A stretch of DNA of 64,000 nt from an uncultured Syntrophomonadaceae bacterium (lineage in GTDB: Bacteria; Bacillota; Dethiobacteria; DTU022), in assembly GCA_964464625.1 (NCBI GenBank), contig CAYXKD010000004.1:6966-70965 (forward strand), written 5' to 3'. Position 1 is the stretch's first letter. Every line of letters begins with the position of its first letter. The notes under the pieces were generated by a model, which was not told the origin of the DNA, did no database searches, and saw nothing but the letters and a program-made list of their open reading frames with translations. Both the position numbers and the translations under genes were made by a program. Shown one piece after another: positions 20,944 to 48,411 of this stretch.

Positions 20944-21021
20944 AACTTAGTAAACCGGTGCCAGGCACCGGTTTACCTATACCAGTTAGTTAGTGAACTT
21001 GGTGCCTGGCACCGGTTTACC
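20944..21021. repeat. Two adjacent palindromic repeat units (copy B1 gtaaaccggtgccaggcaccggtttac; B2 gtgaacttggtgcctggcaccggtttac), between deoB stop and dacF start
   Basis: Seen directly in sequence. Confidence 0.9.
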
Positions 21022-31709: not shown

Positions 31710-31738
31710 CCTGCGCCGGTGCCAGGCACCGGCGCAGG
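31710..31738. repeat. Palindromic repeat variant (cctgcgccggtgccaggcaccggcgcagg), copy C, between the convergent spo0A and sigma-54 activator genes
   Basis: 29-bp perfect palindrome sharing the ccggtgccaggcaccgg core with the other copies. Confidence 0.85.
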
Positions 31739-35714: not shown

Positions 35715-35802
35715 CTGGAGCCTCCCCCTCCTTATTTGGCTTACTCTTTCGTCTCTTCTTTTGTTTTTTCCCTACCTGATCCTTATTTTCTCCCCGCCGC
35801 CC

Positions 35803-40685: not shown

Positions 40686-40776
40686 CGGCTCTGCCGTGAG
40701 CCCGCTGCGTTATTTCAGGTTAATCATCTTGCCGCCCGGATATACTCCGGCTGCCGGGCGCTCCCCGGATAAACTG

Positions 40777-41349
40777 TAAAAAAAACATAAGTGGTAGCAG
40801 GCCAGATAAACGTTGCGGCTTAGGTCCAGCAGGTTTTCCCGAACAATCGCCCTCCGTCACCGGCAAGGCAGTTCCCTTTTCAGATTATTCCCGCCATGTC
40901 ACCAATGGCAGAGCTGGATTGCCACTTAGCTCACACTGTAATCCCTGACTTGCCTCTCTTGCGAGAACAGTCTAGAAGATTTCCTCCCTGGCTCCTGACC
41001 TCTCCTAGCCTCTTTTGCAGTGTGGGTTTCAGGAAATTTCTCCTCCCCCCGCCCACACCACTCAAGGCAGGCTACACTGCACCCAGCTTTCACCGCATGC
41101 AGGTTCATTCCCAAGCAGTAACCGTAGCCGTCAGGCATCCGGCCACCATCATTGGGTCTCCGCGAAGGCAGGGTCAACGCCTACATGCCTTTGTAGATCG
41201 CCCCGTCCTTCTTAACTCCCAGCACCGACCCCCAACTGGGCGTCGGCAGCCGGCACCAGGAACTTCATCGATGTGCCCTCAACGGATTTTTAGGCCCGTT
41301 TTCGAAGAGGGGGAGCCAACTAGAATACTGCACCACTTATGCCTCTTGT
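40777..41349 (-). ncRNA. ole: Candidate OLE (ornate large extremophilic) RNA, about 575 nt
   Basis: About 760-bp region with no credible ORF. Strong promoter TTGAGA-17-TGcTATAAT (complement 41356-41384). The 5' end (gcataagtggtg) pairs with the 3' end (ctaccacttatg), which is followed by a run of eight U. Sits between ispA/folD and oapA-dxs. Confidence 0.6.
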
Positions 41350-41355
41350 TGAAAA

Positions 41356-41384
41356 ATTATAGCACAACCCTTTTCCTTTCTCAA
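41356..41384 (-). promoter_or_regulatory. Sigma-A-type promoter (TTGAGA, 17-nt spacer, extended -10 TGCTATAAT) driving the OLE-like RNA
   Basis: Minus strand reads cTTGAGAaaggaaaagggttgTGCTATAATt. Confidence 0.65.
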
Positions 41385-41444
41385 GACGGCTGGAGCACCG
41401 CTGTACTCCCTGTTCCCATCCTGAAAGCCCTGGAAGCGGAGAAA

Positions 41445-42821
41445 TTAAATCACCAGGCCCTCATTGAGATGATTGCAGTTTGTAGCTATGGCATTCATGG
41501 CCGCCGCATTTATGGGATAGGCGATGGGCGACGGCGAGACCAGGGGATGCGTTGCCGTCTGGAATGTATTGAGCTCCGTTGCGGTGATATCTTTTAGTAT
41601 GGCCAGGCTTAAAATGTTGATGATCTCGGCAACGGTATTCCCGCCGGAAATCTGCGCGCCCAGGATGATCCCGGAGCATCTTGAAAAGATCATCTTGATC
41701 TTGACTTCCTGGGCATCGGGCAGGGAGCCGGGGTGGCGGTCCATGGTCTTGAACTCGCCGACCATAAGGCAGTACCCCTCCTGCTTCGCCCTGGCCTCCG
41801 TCAGGCCGGCCGCCGCAAAGGTTTTACCGAATATCTTCGTGGAAAAGGTGCTGATGGTACCTTTGTTGGCGCGGATTAGCCTTAGCTGGAAGGCATTGCT
41901 GCCCGCTATCTTCGCCTCCATCGCCGCCGTTGAAGCCAGGAGCAGCGGCACATCTTTCCCTGTAAAGAAACATTTCTTCTCGGCGCAGTCGCCCACGGCG
42001 AATATATCGGGATCGCTTGTTCTCATATACTGATCAACCACGATGGCGCCCTTGGCATTCATCTCCAGGCCGCAATCCCTCCCCAGCGCTCCATGGGGCT
42101 TCATGCCCAACCCCAGGATGACCATGTCGGCGGGAATGATCCGGCCGTCCTCCAGTTCGAGGGCCTCTACAGATTTTTCGCCCACTATTCTTTTGACCTT
42201 TGTTTTTGTCATCACCTCAATGCCGCGCCCGCTCATCTGCGCCTCAATGTCATCGGTGAAACTCTTGTCAAAAGCCTGCCATAGAAGGGAGTCCGCCATT
42301 TCGACCAGCATAACATTCTTCTCCAGCAACCTGATCTGCTCTGCAAATTCAACGCCGATAAAGCCGCCCCCGATAACGGCAACATTCCGGGCAGATTCCA
42401 GATTATCGAAAATCTTCTGCAGGTAAACTTCATCTTTCGTTATGGGATAGACATTCTCCAGATCGTAACCGGGAATAAATGTGGGGATAATGGGCAGAGA
42501 ACCGGTAGCCAGAACCAGCTTTTTATAGCTAAAAACTCCATTGTCCCTGGTGGTTACGGTCTTCTGCTCCCTCTCTATTTCAAGTGCGCTGTCGATAACA
42601 ATATTCACATCGGCATTGGTGAGCATGGCATCGGGAATAACATTTTTCTTCAGATCGCGCAGTGTCCCGAAGATATAGGGTATTCCACAGGGCACCATTA
42701 CTGTTTCGGTTTCACGGATCAGGGTGATATCGATGAGATCACCGTACGCCTTCCGCGCCATCGTAGCGGTCAGGATCCCGCCCGCGCTTCCTCCAATCAC
42801 CAGCAGATCTGTTTTTTTCAT
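41445..42821 (-). CDS. FAD-dependent pyridine nucleotide-disulfide oxidoreductase (NADH oxidase / CoA-disulfide reductase family)
   Basis: GGSAGG FAD site, redox Cys in VPCGIPY, second Rossmann VIGGGFIG. Start MKKTDLLVIGG with RBS AGGAGGAGG. Noticeably lower GC than the flanks. Confidence 0.8.
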   Translation of the reverse strand: MKKTDLLVIGGSAGGILTATMARKAYGDLIDITLIRETETVMVPCGIPYIFGTLRDLKKNVIPDAMLTNADVNIVIDSALEIEREQKTVTTRDNGVFSYKKLVLATGSLPIIPTFIPGYDLENVYPITKDEVYLQKIFDNLESARNVAVIGGGFIGVEFAEQIRLLEKNVMLVEMADSLLWQAFDKSFTDDIEAQMSGRGIEVMTKTKVKRIVGEKSVEALELEDGRIIPADMVILGLGMKPHGALGRDCGLEMNAKGAIVVDQYMRTSDPDIFAVGDCAEKKCFFTGKDVPLLLASTAAMEAKIAGSNAFQLRLIRANKGTISTFSTKIFGKTFAAAGLTEARAKQEGYCLMVGEFKTMDRHPGSLPDAQEVKIKMIFSRCSGIILGAQISGGNTVAEIINILSLAILKDITATELNTFQTATHPLVSPSPIAYPINAAAMNAIATNCNHLNEGLVI

Positions 42822-42863
42822 TTTCCTCCTCCTTGGATAATGTTCCAGGTTGAATATACTCAA

Positions 42864-42990
42864 TTATACTTCAACACCTTTAACCGGGCAACCGCCACCA
42901 AACTTGGTAAACCGGTGCCAGGCACCGGTTTACTAAAATAGCTAAGTGAACTGGTGCCTGGCACCGGTTCACCTGGGCTCAGGCTCAAGA
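42864..42990. repeat. Left copy of an approximately 130-bp direct repeat (ttatacttcaacacYtttaacMgggcaaccgcc plus two palindromic units plus ggctcaag) flanking the AT-rich exporter gene
   Basis: Aligns with 44136-44275. Contains palindrome units D1 (42907-42933) and D2 (42946-42972). Confidence 0.85.
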
Positions 42991-44034
42991 AGCCAGATCA
43001 AATTCAATGATTAGCTGTTCCAGTTTCTCATTTATGCGTAGCGCTTCAGAATATACATTGTAGAATTCAAAAATACATTCACGATTATCTGCCTTGATGA
43101 GTTCCATGATCTTTTCTCGCATCTTTTCTCTATCGATACATCCCTTAACTTTTTGATACTCCTCGTTTAGAGCGATGTTGTTGTAGATATGCTTATGTAC
43201 AGTTAACAGGTATCTTAGATATCCATGTAAATCCTGACGTATCTCATGATATTGGGGACCTTCAGGCATAAAAATGATACTTCTGTGTAAAGCTGTCAGC
43301 CGTTCAAGGTTTGATTGAATGGCATTAATGGAGCGCCGGTATTTTTTTAAAAACAGCTTCTTTTTGGACCGGTTGTCCCTGGTCAGGAAGACATCGTCCA
43401 TCAAAAGGGAAAATATATCTCGGACATCATCCAATTCATCCCTGATCATTTGTCTTTTGTTTTTAATGATATCTTTTTCTACGTTTTTATCCCTCAAAAT
43501 ATCACTGATCACGCTGCTGTACAGGCACTCAAACTTTATGCGCAGTTCATTGATTTTGCTCTTCAGGTCTTCTGTATAATCAGGGGGCAAAAATACAATA
43601 TTTAGACCCGTGGAAACAGTCAGACCGATTAAAATTCCTGAAACGCGATAAACGATCTGCATAACATCAAAACTGCTAATGGTTCCAAGGGCTACCAGGG
43701 TTACCAGGGCAAACCTGATGCTCTCATTCAATTTTAGTTGTAAGCATATCAGGATAATGGCTATACTGCCCAGCCCAAGATAAAAAGCATTCAGTCCCAG
43801 AGTCAAGGCCAGTACAAATGCTATGATAGCGCCAATAAAGGTGGCGATTATTCTATTTCTGAAAGTCTGCAGGCTTCCCTTAATGGAGGGTTGCATCGAT
43901 ATTATCGCTGTTATAGCCGCTATCCCGGCAATATTGTAGCTTTCCGCACCAATCTTCGCTTCCAAAAGATTAACCAATAAAACTGTTAAAGTAACCACCA
44001 AACCTGTTTTAACTGTCCGGGCTCCAATTTTCAT
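42985..44034 (-). CDS. Aromatic acid exporter (ArAE/FUSC, YgaE/YqjA-like) family membrane protein, AT-rich, probably horizontally acquired
   Basis: MKIGARTVKTGLVV... N-terminus typical of Bacillus YgaE-like proteins. GC about 38-40% against about 63% surroundings. Confidence 0.75.
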   Translation of the reverse strand: MKIGARTVKTGLVVTLTVLLVNLLEAKIGAESYNIAGIAAITAIISMQPSIKGSLQTFRNRIIATFIGAIIAFVLALTLGLNAFYLGLGSIAIILICLQLKLNESIRFALVTLVALGTISSFDVMQIVYRVSGILIGLTVSTGLNIVFLPPDYTEDLKSKINELRIKFECLYSSVISDILRDKNVEKDIIKNKRQMIRDELDDVRDIFSLLMDDVFLTRDNRSKKKLFLKKYRRSINAIQSNLERLTALHRSIIFMPEGPQYHEIRQDLHGYLRYLLTVHKHIYNNIALNEEYQKVKGCIDREKMREKIMELIKADNRECIFEFYNVYSEALRINEKLEQLIIEFDLAS

Positions 44035-44135
44035 TAAAGATCAATCACCGTTCCTTCTTATATTTACGTCAAGCTATTTTTACATATTATCATACATGCC
44101 ACGATCATGACATTAGCTTACGCGGCCATTCTCCC

Positions 44136-44275
44136 TTATACTTCAACACTTTTAACAGGGCAACCGCCGTAAAACTTAGTAAACTGGTGCCTGGCACCGG
44201 TTTACTAAAACAGCTACGCCCCCCGGCTCAAGTTAAACTTAGTGAACTGGTGCCTGGCACCGAGTTCACTAAGTT
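44136..44275. repeat. Right copy of the approximately 130-bp direct repeat, containing palindromic units E1 (44178-44204) and E2 (44243-44269)
   Basis: Seen directly in sequence. Confidence 0.85.
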
Positions 44276-44302
44276 CAGTAATAGCTGCAGGGGGGTGACG
44301 TA

Positions 44303-44340
44303 AATAAAAAGCACAGCGCCCGGTATCAATCGCCGGGCGC
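44303..44340 (-). terminator. Rho-independent terminator downstream of folD
   Basis: Minus strand reads gcgcccggc-gattgata-ccgggcgc followed by tgtgctttttattta. Confidence 0.7.
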
Positions 44341-44348
44341 CCGTAAAA

Positions 44349-44392
44349 ATTAGTAAACTTGGTGCCTGGCACCGAGTTTACCGGGTTTACTA
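44349..44392. repeat. Palindromic repeat copy F (agtaaacttggtgcctggcaccgagtttac plus an extra gtttac), overlapping the folD stop codon
   Basis: Seen directly in sequence. Confidence 0.85.
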
Positions 44393-45247
44393 ATTTTGTT
44401 GCATTTCGCAGGCCATGACGGTGTGCTTGCAGAGTACGATGGTGGTAACGGAGCCCACTCCGCCGGGAACGGGGGTGATTTTTTCGACCAGCGGCTCCAC
44501 CGCGGCAAAGTCCACATCGCCGCAGTATTTGCCGGGATTGTCGGGATCGGCGTTGATGCCCACATCAACGACGATCTGCCCCGCTTTGACGTAGCTGCTG
44601 CCGATCATCTTGGCCCGCCCGATGGCGGCTACAAGGATATCGGCCTCGGCGCAGACCTTGTCCAGGTTCTCAGTGCGCGAATGGCAGATGGTGATGGTGG
44701 CATGCTCACGCATGAGCAGCATGGCCACAGGTTTGCCCACAACAAGGGAGCGGCCCACCACGGTGACCTTTTTCCCCTTCAGCGGGATATCGTAGAATTT
44801 CAGCATCTCCATGCAGGCGGTGGGGGTGCAGGGGGGGAAGCCTGTCACATCATCGGCAAAAACCTTCCCCGCGCTGCCCAGGGTCATGCAGTCCACATCC
44901 TTCTCCACAGGAATGAGCTGGCGGATCTTCTTCTCGTCCAGATGCTTCGGCAGCGGGGCAAACATGAGGATGCCGTGGATGGAGCTGTCGGCGCCCACAT
45001 CAGTAACCGCTTTTTCCAGCTGCTCCTGGCCAATATCCTCGGGGTGCTCAAAGATCTCAAAAGCAAGCCCGACCCCTTCACTGGTCTTCTTGATGCCGCC
45101 CTCGTAGAAAAGATCATCGGGGTTGGCACCCACACGGATAATCCCGATCTTGGGAGTAACCCCTTTTGCTTTCAGGGCCTCCACCCTTTTTACAAGATCT
45201 TCCTTCATGGCATCGACTACCGGTTTTCCTCTCAATCTTTCAGCCAT
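44390..45247 (-). CDS. folD: Bifunctional methylenetetrahydrofolate dehydrogenase/cyclohydrolase
   Basis: Full-length FolD homology. Confidence 0.95.
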
Positions 45248-45274
45248 TATCCCAACCTCCCATTTGTATAATAT

Positions 45275-45940
45275 TTATTTTTTGATCTTGCCGACAACGA
45301 GTTCCATTGTTTTATCGGCAACTTTGCTTCCGTCATTGAGCAGGTGATCCATCTCCTTGTTTACCCCGTCCACGAATTCCACATCCTTGATTGCGCCCAG
45401 GTTGATGATCACATTAAGGTAGGCGCTCTGCAGGGCCGCCTTCAGAAAGACCACACCGCAGCCCACATCGGAGATGGCCAGCATGGAGCCGATCTCGCCC
45501 ATGCGCTCATGGATTTTGATTCCCCGGTAAGCCTGGCGCATAATCTCCAGCGGGACTGCCAGGGCCACCTTGGAGCATTCCTCCAGGGTCTTTTCTTTGT
45601 GGGCCGCCTCTTCAGGGGTATTCTTCGGCAATCCATAGGCCGCGGCCAGCGGCTTGAAACCTTCGGCATCCTCATCCACCAGCGCCTTCAGGCGGTCGAT
45701 GATCCCGTAGCCCTCCTCGAGAAGAGCCTTAACTTCATCCTCCACGTCGGCATATCTTTTCTTGCCCACCGTGAGGTTGGCCACCATGTTGGAGAGAGCC
45801 ATCCCGATGGCTCCGCCCATGGCGGCCGCTCCCCCCCCTCCCGGAGTGGGAGCCTTTGATGCAAGCACATCCAAAAAATGATCGCAGCTGTTTGATGACA
45901 TGGCCATAACTAACATCCTCCTTAATTTTTTATTTTCCAT
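45275..45940 (-). CDS. fchA: Formiminotetrahydrofolate cyclodeaminase / methenyl-THF cyclohydrolase (FtcD C-terminal domain family)
   Basis: Cyclodeaminase-family all-helical domain (...PTPGGGGAAAMGGAIGMALSNMV...). Confidence 0.75.
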   Translation of the reverse strand: MENKKLRRMLVMAMSSNSCDHFLDVLASKAPTPGGGGAAAMGGAIGMALSNMVANLTVGKKRYADVEDEVKALLEEGYGIIDRLKALVDEDAEGFKPLAAAYGLPKNTPEEAAHKEKTLEECSKVALAVPLEIMRQAYRGIKIHERMGEIGSMLAISDVGCGVVFLKAALQSAYLNVIINLGAIKDVEFVDGVNKEMDHLLNDGSKVADKTMELVVGKIKK

Positions 45941-46951: not shown

Positions 46952-47189
46952 CGGGCTCTCCGCCGCCCTCCCCCTCCGCCTCCTGCTCCTCCTTGAGAAG
47001 GTATTCCACCTGAAATTCGATTTCAGCCAGTTTTTCACGACAGTAGCGGGAAAGGCGCACTCCCTCCTTGAAACCTGCCAGCGCCTCCTCCAGGGGTATA
47101 TCCTCATTTTCCAGACGCGCCACGATCTCCTCGAGGCGCTTCATGGCCTCTTCATAAGAGAGATTTTCTTCTTTTTCTTCAGGGGACAA
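46908..47189 (-). CDS. xseB: Exodeoxyribonuclease VII small subunit
   Basis: XseB coiled-coil homology (LSYEEAMKRLEEIVARLE). Confidence 0.9.
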   Translation of the reverse strand: MSPEEKEENLSYEEAMKRLEEIVARLENEDIPLEEALAGFKEGVRLSRYCREKLAEIEFQVEYLLKEEQEAEGEGGGEPGEPGETAGGAGGDF

Positions 47190-48411
47190 GTTCAGGACCC
47201 TCCTCCAACTCTTCAGTGCGGCAGCGGGCGCTGCCGTTGCGGAAACGCAGCTGCAGGCGCTGTCCCACCTGCAACTCTTTTATGGATCGAATTACATTGC
47301 CCTTATCATCCTGGCAGTAGCTGTAGCCCCGGGCCATCAATTTCAAGGGACTGGACCCTTCAAGCTTATCCCCCAGCACCGCCAGTTGCAACCCTTTCAA
47401 CTCCAGGTAGCGCAGTATGGAGCGGCGCATCCTTTCATCAAGGGAGGCGCGGCGCTCCCCCGCTCTTTGCACCCTTTCCAGGGGGCGGCGGTAAAAACGG
47501 GCCGTCATCGTATAATCGAGCAGCTGCTTTTCCTGCAGCAGCCGCTGCTGCAGCGCCAGCGCACTTCTCTCCTCCAACCCCCTGATCTGCCTGAGCAGCT
47601 CATCGTAACGCGGCAGCGCAGCCGCCGCAGCGGCTGTAGGGGTGGCAGCCCGCAAATCGGAGACAAAGTCGGCAATGGTAAAGTCAGTTTCATGGCCCAC
47701 GGCGGAGATAACGGGCAGGCGGGAGCTGAAAATCGCCCGGGCCACCTTCTCGGTATTGAAAGGAAGCAGATCCTCCAGGGAACCGCCGCCGCGGGCGATA
47801 ATGATGAGCTCCACGCCCGCCATGCTGTTCAGCCGCTCAATGGCGCGGGCAATATCATCGGGGGCGCCGCTACCCTGCATCAGGCTTTCCGCAACGATGA
47901 TCCGGACATAGGGAAAACGCTGCCTCACCGTTGTGAGGATATCCTGCAGCGCCGCCCCGGTGGGCGAGGTGATGAGTGCAATACAGCGCGGCAGTTTGGG
48001 CAGCGGCTGCTTGTGCCCGTCGCGAAAAAGCCCTTCCTCTTCAAGTTTCTTCTTAAGCTGTTCAAAAGCCAGGTAGAGTGAGCCCATTCCCGCCGGCTCC
48101 ATCTCTGTCACATATAACTGGTAGGCGCCGCCGGGCTCGTACACGGAGACGCTGCCGGATATGAGAAGTTCCATCCCATCAGCAGGCTGAAAGAGGCAGC
48201 GCTGATTTTCACGTCGGAAAAAGACGCAGCGCAGCGAGGCGGAGCTGTCCTTGACGGTAAAGTACATGTGCCCTGAGCGATGGTGAGTGAAATTGGAAAG
48301 CTCCCCCGCCACCCAGATGTCGCGGAGGCGGGGGTCGCCCTGGATCAGCCCTTTGATGATCCGGTTAATTTCCGATACCGTATATACGGGAGTGCCATTC
48401 TGCATTTTCAA
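47179..48411 (-). CDS. xseA: Exodeoxyribonuclease VII large subunit
   Basis: OB-fold N-terminus and catalytic domain homology. Confidence 0.9.
   Translation of the reverse strand: MKMQNGTPVYTVSEINRIIKGLIQGDPRLRDIWVAGELSNFTHHRSGHMYFTVKDSSASLRCVFFRRENQRCLFQPADGMELLISGSVSVYEPGGAYQLYVTEMEPAGMGSLYLAFEQLKKKLEEEGLFRDGHKQPLPKLPRCIALITSPTGAALQDILTTVRQRFPYVRIIVAESLMQGSGAPDDIARAIERLNSMAGVELIIIARGGGSLEDLLPFNTEKVARAIFSSRLPVISAVGHETDFTIADFVSDLRAATPTAAAAAALPRYDELLRQIRGLEERSALALQQRLLQEKQLLDYTMTARFYRRPLERVQRAGERRASLDERMRRSILRYLELKGLQLAVLGDKLEGSSPLKLMARGYSYCQDDKGNVIRSIKELQVGQRLQLRFRNGSARCRTEELEEGPELVP

Follow-up and report, generated by a model that had tools for sequence, protein, structure and literature searches.

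The ArAE/FUSC/ALMT superfamily includes the plant aluminium-activated malate transporter (ALMT) anion channels, the bacterial YgaE/DUF939 proteins and AaeB. Herein, we describe a gene of this superfamily, termed ArAE, in a 64-kb stretch of DNA from an uncultured Syntrophomonadaceae bacterium (contig CAYXKD010000004.1, positions 6,966 to 70,965, hereafter the window). Together with a nox-like oxidoreductase gene it lies between folD and the gene for OLE RNA, and it is flanked by direct repeats that each carry a doublet of palindromes. Such doublets recall repetitive extragenic palindromic (REP) sequences, whose hairpin-forming doublets, the REPINs, are known replicative units (Bertels & Rainey 2011, PMC3116915, PMC3337134). 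The insertion is real and sharply bounded; as an event it is nevertheless of an ordinary kind, and no new mobile element is involved. We consider it likely that the folD-OLE spacer of this uncultured Bacillota species, an anaerobic-digester bacterium related to Syntrophomonadaceae, has gained a small and passive islet by horizontal acquisition. We regard as established the anatomy of the locus, its foreign composition, its absence from relatives, the differing contexts of its homologues and the fold of the encoded protein.

All genes of the region are carried by the minus strand, in the 5' to 3' order xseA, xseB, ispA, FTCD_C, folD, ArAE, nox, OLE, oapA, dxs and tlyA. ArAE (42985-44034) and nox (41445-42821) lie exactly where the initial annotation of this DNA had placed them, and the neighbouring locus that it called OLE-like is a genuine OLE RNA gene (40775-41352; Rfam RF01071, 470 bits). 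The window proteins were placed by tblastn on 80 OLE loci that were taken from species-representative genomes and anchored on OapA. The nearest relatives (loci L008, L009 and L010) are uncultured Syntrophomonadaceae or Bacillota metagenome-assembled genomes (MAGs) with a GC content of 58-61%, and their shared proteins are 71-92% identical to those of the window (about 80% amino-acid identity). All three have the order xseA-xseB-ispA-FTCD_C-folD-OLE-oapA-dxs-tlyA, with OLE (467-498 bits) starting approximately 55-205 nt past the folD stop codon, and neither ArAE nor nox was found in any of the 80 loci, outgroups included. Since folD stands directly before OLE in the relatives and both genes are missing from every locus compared, the roughly 3 kb that hold ArAE and nox (about 41385-44390) are, on gene order, an insertion specific to the species of the window. 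The upstream boundary gene is folD (44390-45247; Pfam THF_DHG_CYH and THF_DHG_CYH_C). The downstream boundary is the predicted OLE promoter, TTGAGA-17-TATAAT at 41356-41384, whose -10 is preceded by a TG in the window; the window species and its three relatives all keep this promoter (about 9301-9329 in L008, 9316-9344 in L009 and 2006-2034 in L010), although their spacers cannot otherwise be aligned.

ArAE stands out from the window in composition. Its GC content is 39.4%, in line with the 38-40% first given for it, while the window measures 57.6%, short of the 63% that had been assumed for the genome. With 57 non-overlapping window open reading frames (ORFs) as the baseline, the GC content at third codon positions (GC3) of ArAE, 0.429, is the lowest of all (mean 0.672, standard deviation 0.060; z about -4). 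GC at the first and second positions (GC1 and GC2) is 0.45 and 0.30, and the protein is rich in Ile, Leu, Lys and Asn. The nox gene, with 52.7% GC and a GC3 of 0.654, falls inside one standard deviation of the window mean and is not compositionally foreign. Thus the deviation in GC and codon usage proposed for the block holds for ArAE and does not extend to nox, whose overall GC is marginally low, as had been remarked, while its GC3 is ordinary.

The homologues of ArAE form a tight clade of 52-85% identity in anaerobic-digester MAGs (Syntrophaceticus, Syntrophomonadaceae, Dethiobacteria); all other matches, those to Bacillus YgaE-like proteins included, drop sharply to 25-38% identity. The gene occurs in six other genomes in six different neighbourhoods. 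In hosts of 37% and 47% GC, which are Syntrophomonadaceae and Dethiobacteria MAGs, its GC3 is at the level of its neighbours (0.27 vs 0.305, and 0.536 vs 0.552), whereas in four other hosts of higher GC the gene lies 13-22 GC points under its flanks. Gene and flank GC are, respectively, 0.38 and 0.61 for homologue L003, 0.37 and about 0.53 for L098, 0.42 and 0.54 for L004, and 0.30 and 0.44 for L005. Being neighbour-like in low-GC hosts and AT-rich in higher-GC ones, the family appears to have its home in low-GC Firmicutes and to be foreign to hosts of high GC. The expectation that the closest relatives would be found in low-GC Firmicutes was borne out only in part: the host of the nearest homologue (85%) has about 60% GC, the gene being just as AT-rich there, and native-looking copies come only from the MAGs of 37-47% GC.

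Comparison with the nearest homologue, L003, delimits the foreign DNA. At the nucleotide level the two sequences are 84.3% identical along 1118 nt (42984-44101 in the window), from 67 nt before the ATG to 1 nt past the stop codon, and outside this span their contexts are unrelated. The 67 nt upstream of the coding sequence hold a predicted extended -10 element, TGATAATAT, at 44084-44092, and a Shine-Dalgarno sequence, GGTGATTGAT, at 44040-44049. The arrangement GGTGATTGAT-N5/6-ATG is kept in homologues that are 59-85% identical and stand in unrelated contexts (44035-44054 in the window; L003, L004, L005, L096 and L097), and an extended -10 lies approximately 30-60 nt before the start codon in the window, L003, L005 and L096. 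These shared limits and signals make ArAE a cassette of 1.12 kb, self-contained and equipped with a predicted extended -10 promoter of its own. The palindromes are absent from L003 and the other ArAE loci, no flanking repeats were found around the gene in L003, L004 and L005, and a tblastn search of known plasmids and phages gave no close homologue, only Bacillus and Listeria matches of 26-29% identity.

The ArAE protein has 349 amino acids and matches Pfam ArAE_1 (E=5e-25, 88.7 bits; gathering cut-off 22) and FUSC_2 (35.8 bits; cut-off 25.6). None of the NCBIfam models matches it, and a sequence search of the PDB returned nothing. Its N-terminal 150 amino acids are hydrophobic, and the helical C-terminal half is 36% charged. 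An AlphaFold2 model has 12 helices and a mean confidence (pLDDT) of 86, and the top eight Foldseek matches to the model in the PDB are ALMT1, ALMT9 and ALMT12 (TM 0.53-0.62, probability 1.00). The predicted fold superposes on plant ALMT over the full length, with a membrane domain and a helical cytosolic domain in both, but the sequences share only 14-18% identity; likeness to the Bacillus YgaE-like (DUF939) proteins is weak (25-29% identity). From the model, the protein is probably an organic-anion channel or exporter. The homologues described above document a bacterial gene family of ALMT fold that moves among anaerobic-digester Firmicutes.

The long direct repeats that the initial annotation reported on both sides of the exporter gene are real. 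Without gaps they comprise 89 nt at 87% identity (42856-42944 and 44128-44216), and a gapped alignment lengthens them to about 130 bp (approximately 42856-42986 and 44128-44282) with one 24-nt indel, the extra segment of the right copy being 44217-44240. Read on the coding strand, the right copy is the upstream one, and the left, downstream copy is the nox promoter region. In each, a palindrome doublet comes first (42945-42973 with 42900-42938 on the left; 44236-44275 with 44171-44210 on the right), followed by a predicted sigma-70-type promoter. Both the two palindrome copies per repeat and the 33-nt motif shared between the repeats were correctly described: the palindrome core is found twice in each repeat, and the motif occurs exactly twice in the window against 0.00 expected. 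The promoter predicted before nox, also found by a consensus scan, is TTGCCC-17-TATAAT (42863-42891). Its counterpart in the copy before ArAE reads TTGCCC-17-TATAAG (44135-44163), and this degenerate -10 is present in 3/3 strains. The sequence between doublet and -10, otherwise unique, is shared by the two copies at 94%, and some 8 nt after the -10 the copies cease to match. The nox -10 is flanked by the arms of a GTTGAA...TTCAAC dyad (42870-42875 and 42849-42854), of which the right one is not part of the repeat; the upstream copy has no such right half. With a degenerate -10 and half of the dyad missing in the upstream copy, ArAE probably relies on the promoter that it brought along.

An exact scan of a metagenome collection for the 33-nt motif returned this locus only, with its two copies; the collection includes the MTBK01 contig, which carries this locus. 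With up to 7 mismatches allowed, the motif was found neither upstream of nox homologues nor in the other fetched loci. That the scan returns this locus alone argues for a local duplication and not for a dispersed promoter-bearing element. The repeats each consist of a REPIN-like doublet of host palindromes together with the nox promoter and are not the termini of an element. Furthermore, since nox belongs to the inserted block, they bracket the ArAE cassette only and not an island: of the earlier proposal that they bound an insertion island, the part concerning ArAE stands, and the part concerning nox, which lies outside them with the left repeat as its promoter region, does not. Two other candidate features of the repeats were rejected. 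The GGCTCAAG tail said to be common to them does occur in both but out of register, between the two palindromes on the right and at the ArAE stop codon on the left; with 3 occurrences in the window against 4.6 expected, it is neither a repeat feature nor a junction microhomology. A sigma-54 (-24/-12) reading of TGGCAC inside the palindrome fails, as the -12 element is absent by eye.

The palindromes of the repeats belong to a larger family. Its core, GGTGCCWGGCACC, with arms AAACTTAGTRAAC...GTTYACTAAGTT, is present in 10 copies in the 64 kb against 0.1 expected (7525, 20957, 21001, 42914, 42953, 44186, 44249, 44361 and 63934, and a variant at 31718). The copies are approximately 30-40 nt long and near-perfect, and all lie between ORFs. 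A third doublet is found at 20957/21001. The units of a doublet are 39-63 nt apart and pair with each other as one long hairpin, with a predicted energy of -53.8 kcal/mol for the left doublet (z = -7.7) and -55.1 kcal/mol for the right (z = -8.3). No Y1_Tnp domain, the domain of REP-associated tyrosine transposases (RAYT), was found among the scanned ORFs of the window and of one overlapping contig of the species. The palindrome copy F, noted earlier just past the right repeat, was located at 44346-44397 as a REP-like singlet, an inverted repeat with its core at 44361, at the folD stop codon; a single palindrome directly after folD in L010 is its counterpart. A variant of the palindrome in L010 has different, co-varying arms, and the window copy at 31718, which separates spo0A from the gene of a sigma-54 activator, has GC-rich arms. 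The last codons and stop of folD (44380-44397) fall within the outer arm of copy F, and the FolD C-terminus reads ...MQQN* in the window and ...MQNS*, ...AQNS* or ...MQHNL* in relatives, as if insertion of the palindrome had remodelled the end of the gene.

Between copy F and the right repeat, 3' of folD, the sequence reads as an intrinsic-terminator-like hairpin (44302-44342, minus strand; GGGCGCCCGG...CCGGGCGC followed by UGUGCUUUUUAUUU), which is the second hairpin of the predicted fold. A 26-nt filler (44102-44127) separates the end of the right repeat from the start of the homology to the L003 cassette. A scan of the intergenic regions at Rfam gathering thresholds gave OLE alone as a known RNA motif, and a permissive scan added just sub-threshold matches to miRNA hairpins, on the palindromes.

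The nox gene encodes 458 amino acids with Pfam domains Pyr_redox_2, Pyr_redox and Pyr_redox_dim, preceded by a ribosome-binding site at 42825-34. Its NCBIfam scores are below both equivalog cut-offs (CoADR, 245 vs 578.8; NOXase, 207 vs 600), and its translation contains a VPCGIPY motif; by its domains and motif, the product is predicted to be a single-Cys flavoprotein disulfide reductase. Homologues of 83-85% identity stand in other contexts, have host-like GC and are without the promoter motif. In another case of a nox within a local duplication, an 83% homologue in L092:1755-8323 and L093 is flanked, together with an ArsP_2 permease gene, by HD-domain and cold-shock (CSD) genes that are duplicated.

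The species is represented by three assemblies (that of the window, GCA_002900765.1 and GCA_012510425.1). All three carry the block in the same layout at 98-99% identity, with a density of single-nucleotide polymorphisms of 0.4-0.7% in ArAE and 0.6% in folD. A layout common to three assemblies and a polymorphism density like that of folD argue that the block is not an assembly artefact. Relative to strain L001, substitutions cluster at the 3' end of nox (41499-41745), with 20 in 500 nt against approximately 0.8% overall, which suggests either a small recombination tract or relaxed constraint on the C-terminus. The same comparison has a 47-nt indel at 35743-35789, in the spacer upstream of recN. 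As the initial annotation stated, there is no integrase or transposase: no such Pfam domains were found within about 10 kb on either side of the block. No tRNA or tmRNA was found in the window.

We propose the following course of events. A foreign ArAE cassette would have integrated just downstream of the nox promoter, and its integration would have duplicated about 100-130 bp of target sequence, consisting of the REPIN-like doublet and the nox promoter. The duplication may have come about by Campbell-type integration of a circle that carried one copy, by homology-facilitated or illegitimate recombination, or by template switching, an account that we offer tentatively. The upstream promoter copy would later have decayed to TATAAG. 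Under this model, nox would be transcribed from the intact copy and ArAE from its own promoter, while the long hairpins might act as insulators or terminators between the units. Given the divergence between the repeat copies, the integration would be old relative to strain divergence, yet young relative to amelioration.

Several observations weigh against this course of events. The repeat copies differ by 13% plus the 24-nt indel, far more than the 0.8% between strains, which means that the duplication is old or that one copy came from a diverged donor. No same-species allele without ArAE was found, an exact look-up of folD having given only two contigs, both with the full block, and the metagenome scan for the 33-nt motif found no allele or locus with a solo repeat; the step of duplication at integration is hence one that we infer. 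The relatives, at about 80% amino-acid identity, are too distant to reveal the pre-insertion sequence. The anticipated empty site with a single repeat was not recovered: the 33-nt motif is missing from the sites of L008, L009 and L010, the last of which has just one palindrome. An exact-pattern scan could miss a diverged genome-wide family of doublets with promoters, and the promoter and terminator functions are consensus-based predictions. Finally, the composition of nox is host-like, so that transfer from a donor of similar GC and relocation within the genome are both compatible with the data for this gene.

Other explanations of the repeats were weighed against the passive islet. If they made ArAE mobilisable by recombination, an excised circle of ArAE and one repeat would re-integrate at a similar doublet or promoter, or move with help in trans. 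Direct repeats of approximately 130 bp do flank exactly one foreign gene, dispersed palindrome doublets offer potential landing sites, and ArAE homologues are found in many contexts without adjacent recombinase genes. We nevertheless consider such mobilisation unlikely: the repeats are specific to this host, the 85%-identical L003 cassette and the other homologues being without repeats or palindromes, and 87% identity over about 90 nt makes a poor RecA substrate. As all three assemblies keep the block and the metagenome scan gave this locus only, with no solo repeat, the mobilisation via repeat copies envisaged in the initial annotation is not backed by any evidence that we found. A different origin of the repeats, by independent insertions of an element resembling miniature inverted-repeat transposable elements (MITEs), dispersed and with an outward promoter, would involve no duplication when ArAE integrated. 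A similarly spaced doublet does exist elsewhere in the window (20957/21001), REPIN-type doublets are known as replicative units (PMC3116915), and the palindrome-sized difference between the copies, 24 nt plus an arm, suggests separate histories. This origin becomes quite improbable, however, in view of the 33-nt promoter motif, which is absent from the other five palindrome sites of the window and occurs twice in the exact metagenome scan, both times on the contig of this locus, and of the unique doublet-to-(-10) sequence, which is shared at 94%.

A functional role of the promoter duplication was also considered, in which ArAE and nox would be co-regulated in a stress regulon of anion efflux and redox defence and the duplication kept by selection. 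The -35 and the spacer are the same in both copies, the nox -10 sits within an operator-like dyad, and the two genes are adjacent in this species only. We find this very doubtful, since the upstream copy has lost the final critical T of the -10 in all strains (TATAAG) and lacks the right half of the dyad, while ArAE has its own conserved promoter, as predicted. Highly improbable is the notion that the block is ancestral and was lost in the relatives, the AT-richness of ArAE being intrinsic to a membrane protein through its amino-acid and codon bias or low expression. The low GC1 and GC2 of ArAE do reflect its amino-acid composition, and the gene is slightly under its flanks even in the host of 37% GC (0.32 vs 0.37), but its GC3 equals that of its neighbours in low-GC hosts and is 24 points lower here (z = -4); moreover, neither gene was found near OLE in the 80 loci, outgroups included, and the contexts of the homologues all differ. 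We also give little credence to the idea that the REPIN-like doublets of this lineage capture foreign single-gene cassettes, each with its promoter, without the need for an integrase; ArAE would then be a new kind of hitch-hiking cassette, and about 130 bp of the target would be duplicated as it inserts. The idea would draw on the sharp boundaries of the gene, which run from -67 to the stop codon alike in two hosts of about 58-61% GC and in unrelated contexts, and on the presence of ArAE in seven different contexts without a recombinase gene nearby. If repeats did mediate cassette capture, mobile-DNA biology would find the locus moderately interesting.

The surroundings of OLE vary between lineages. 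The contiguity of folD and OLE, first described as normal, holds in the nearest relatives, whereas in most OLE genomes ispA adjoins OLE. In the clade of the window, folD and the FTCD_C cyclodeaminase gene (together 44390-45940; the latter at 45275-45940, minus strand) lie between ispA and OLE. Bacillaceae and the majority of the remaining OLE genomes (L019-L087 were compared) have folD upstream of xseA, which in the window is at 47179-48411 (minus strand), and ispA next to OLE. In Lederbergia citrisecunda (L075:6459-8888, NZ_JAGYPJ010000001.1), a blaI-like repressor gene, a BlaR1 peptidase-M56 sensor gene and a 180-aa ORF lie between ispA and OLE; this is an independent insertion at a spot equivalent to that of the window islet. 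Such a separate blaI/blaR1 insertion points to a spacer, ahead of the OLE promoter, that may simply be permissive to inserted DNA. The association of the islet with OLE is coincidental, and ArAE and nox beside OLE, being lineage-specific, are unsuitable for inferring OLE function. The finding is mostly useful for annotation; it also draws attention to a REPIN-like palindrome family that is dense in this uncultured Bacillota and may merit a census of its own.

The passive islet that we favour can be set beside several described systems. With integron cassettes and composite-transposon cargo it has in common that ArAE is a compact single-ORF unit with sharp boundaries and palindrome-containing repeats around it. 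It is not an integron cassette: no intI is near, no attC is present on the cassette, where homology ends 1 nt past the stop codon and the palindromes are absent from L003, and the gene has its own predicted promoter. Neither is it a composite transposon or a MITE-bounded unit, as insertion sequences, terminal inverted repeats and a short target-site duplication are all missing, and the repeats are direct and host-derived. Like REP sequences and REPINs, the window palindromes are short, strictly intergenic, highly over-represented and often paired in doublets that fold into one hairpin. They differ in that the unit itself is a near-perfect palindrome, so that orientation within doublets is undefined, in that their host is an uncultured Bacillota, and in that the promoter segment shared by the repeats is not explained by the palindromes. 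From small genomic islets, which are single genes or a few genes gained horizontally in conserved backbone spacers through illegitimate or homology-facilitated recombination, the locus differs in its unusually long, diverged direct repeat of approximately 130 bp, built of host repeats and a duplicated promoter, and in that one of its two inserted genes (nox) shows no compositional deviation; in its discontinuous composition, its absence at the relatives' site, the varied contexts of its homologues, its self-contained transcription unit and its want of mobility genes, the locus resembles them.

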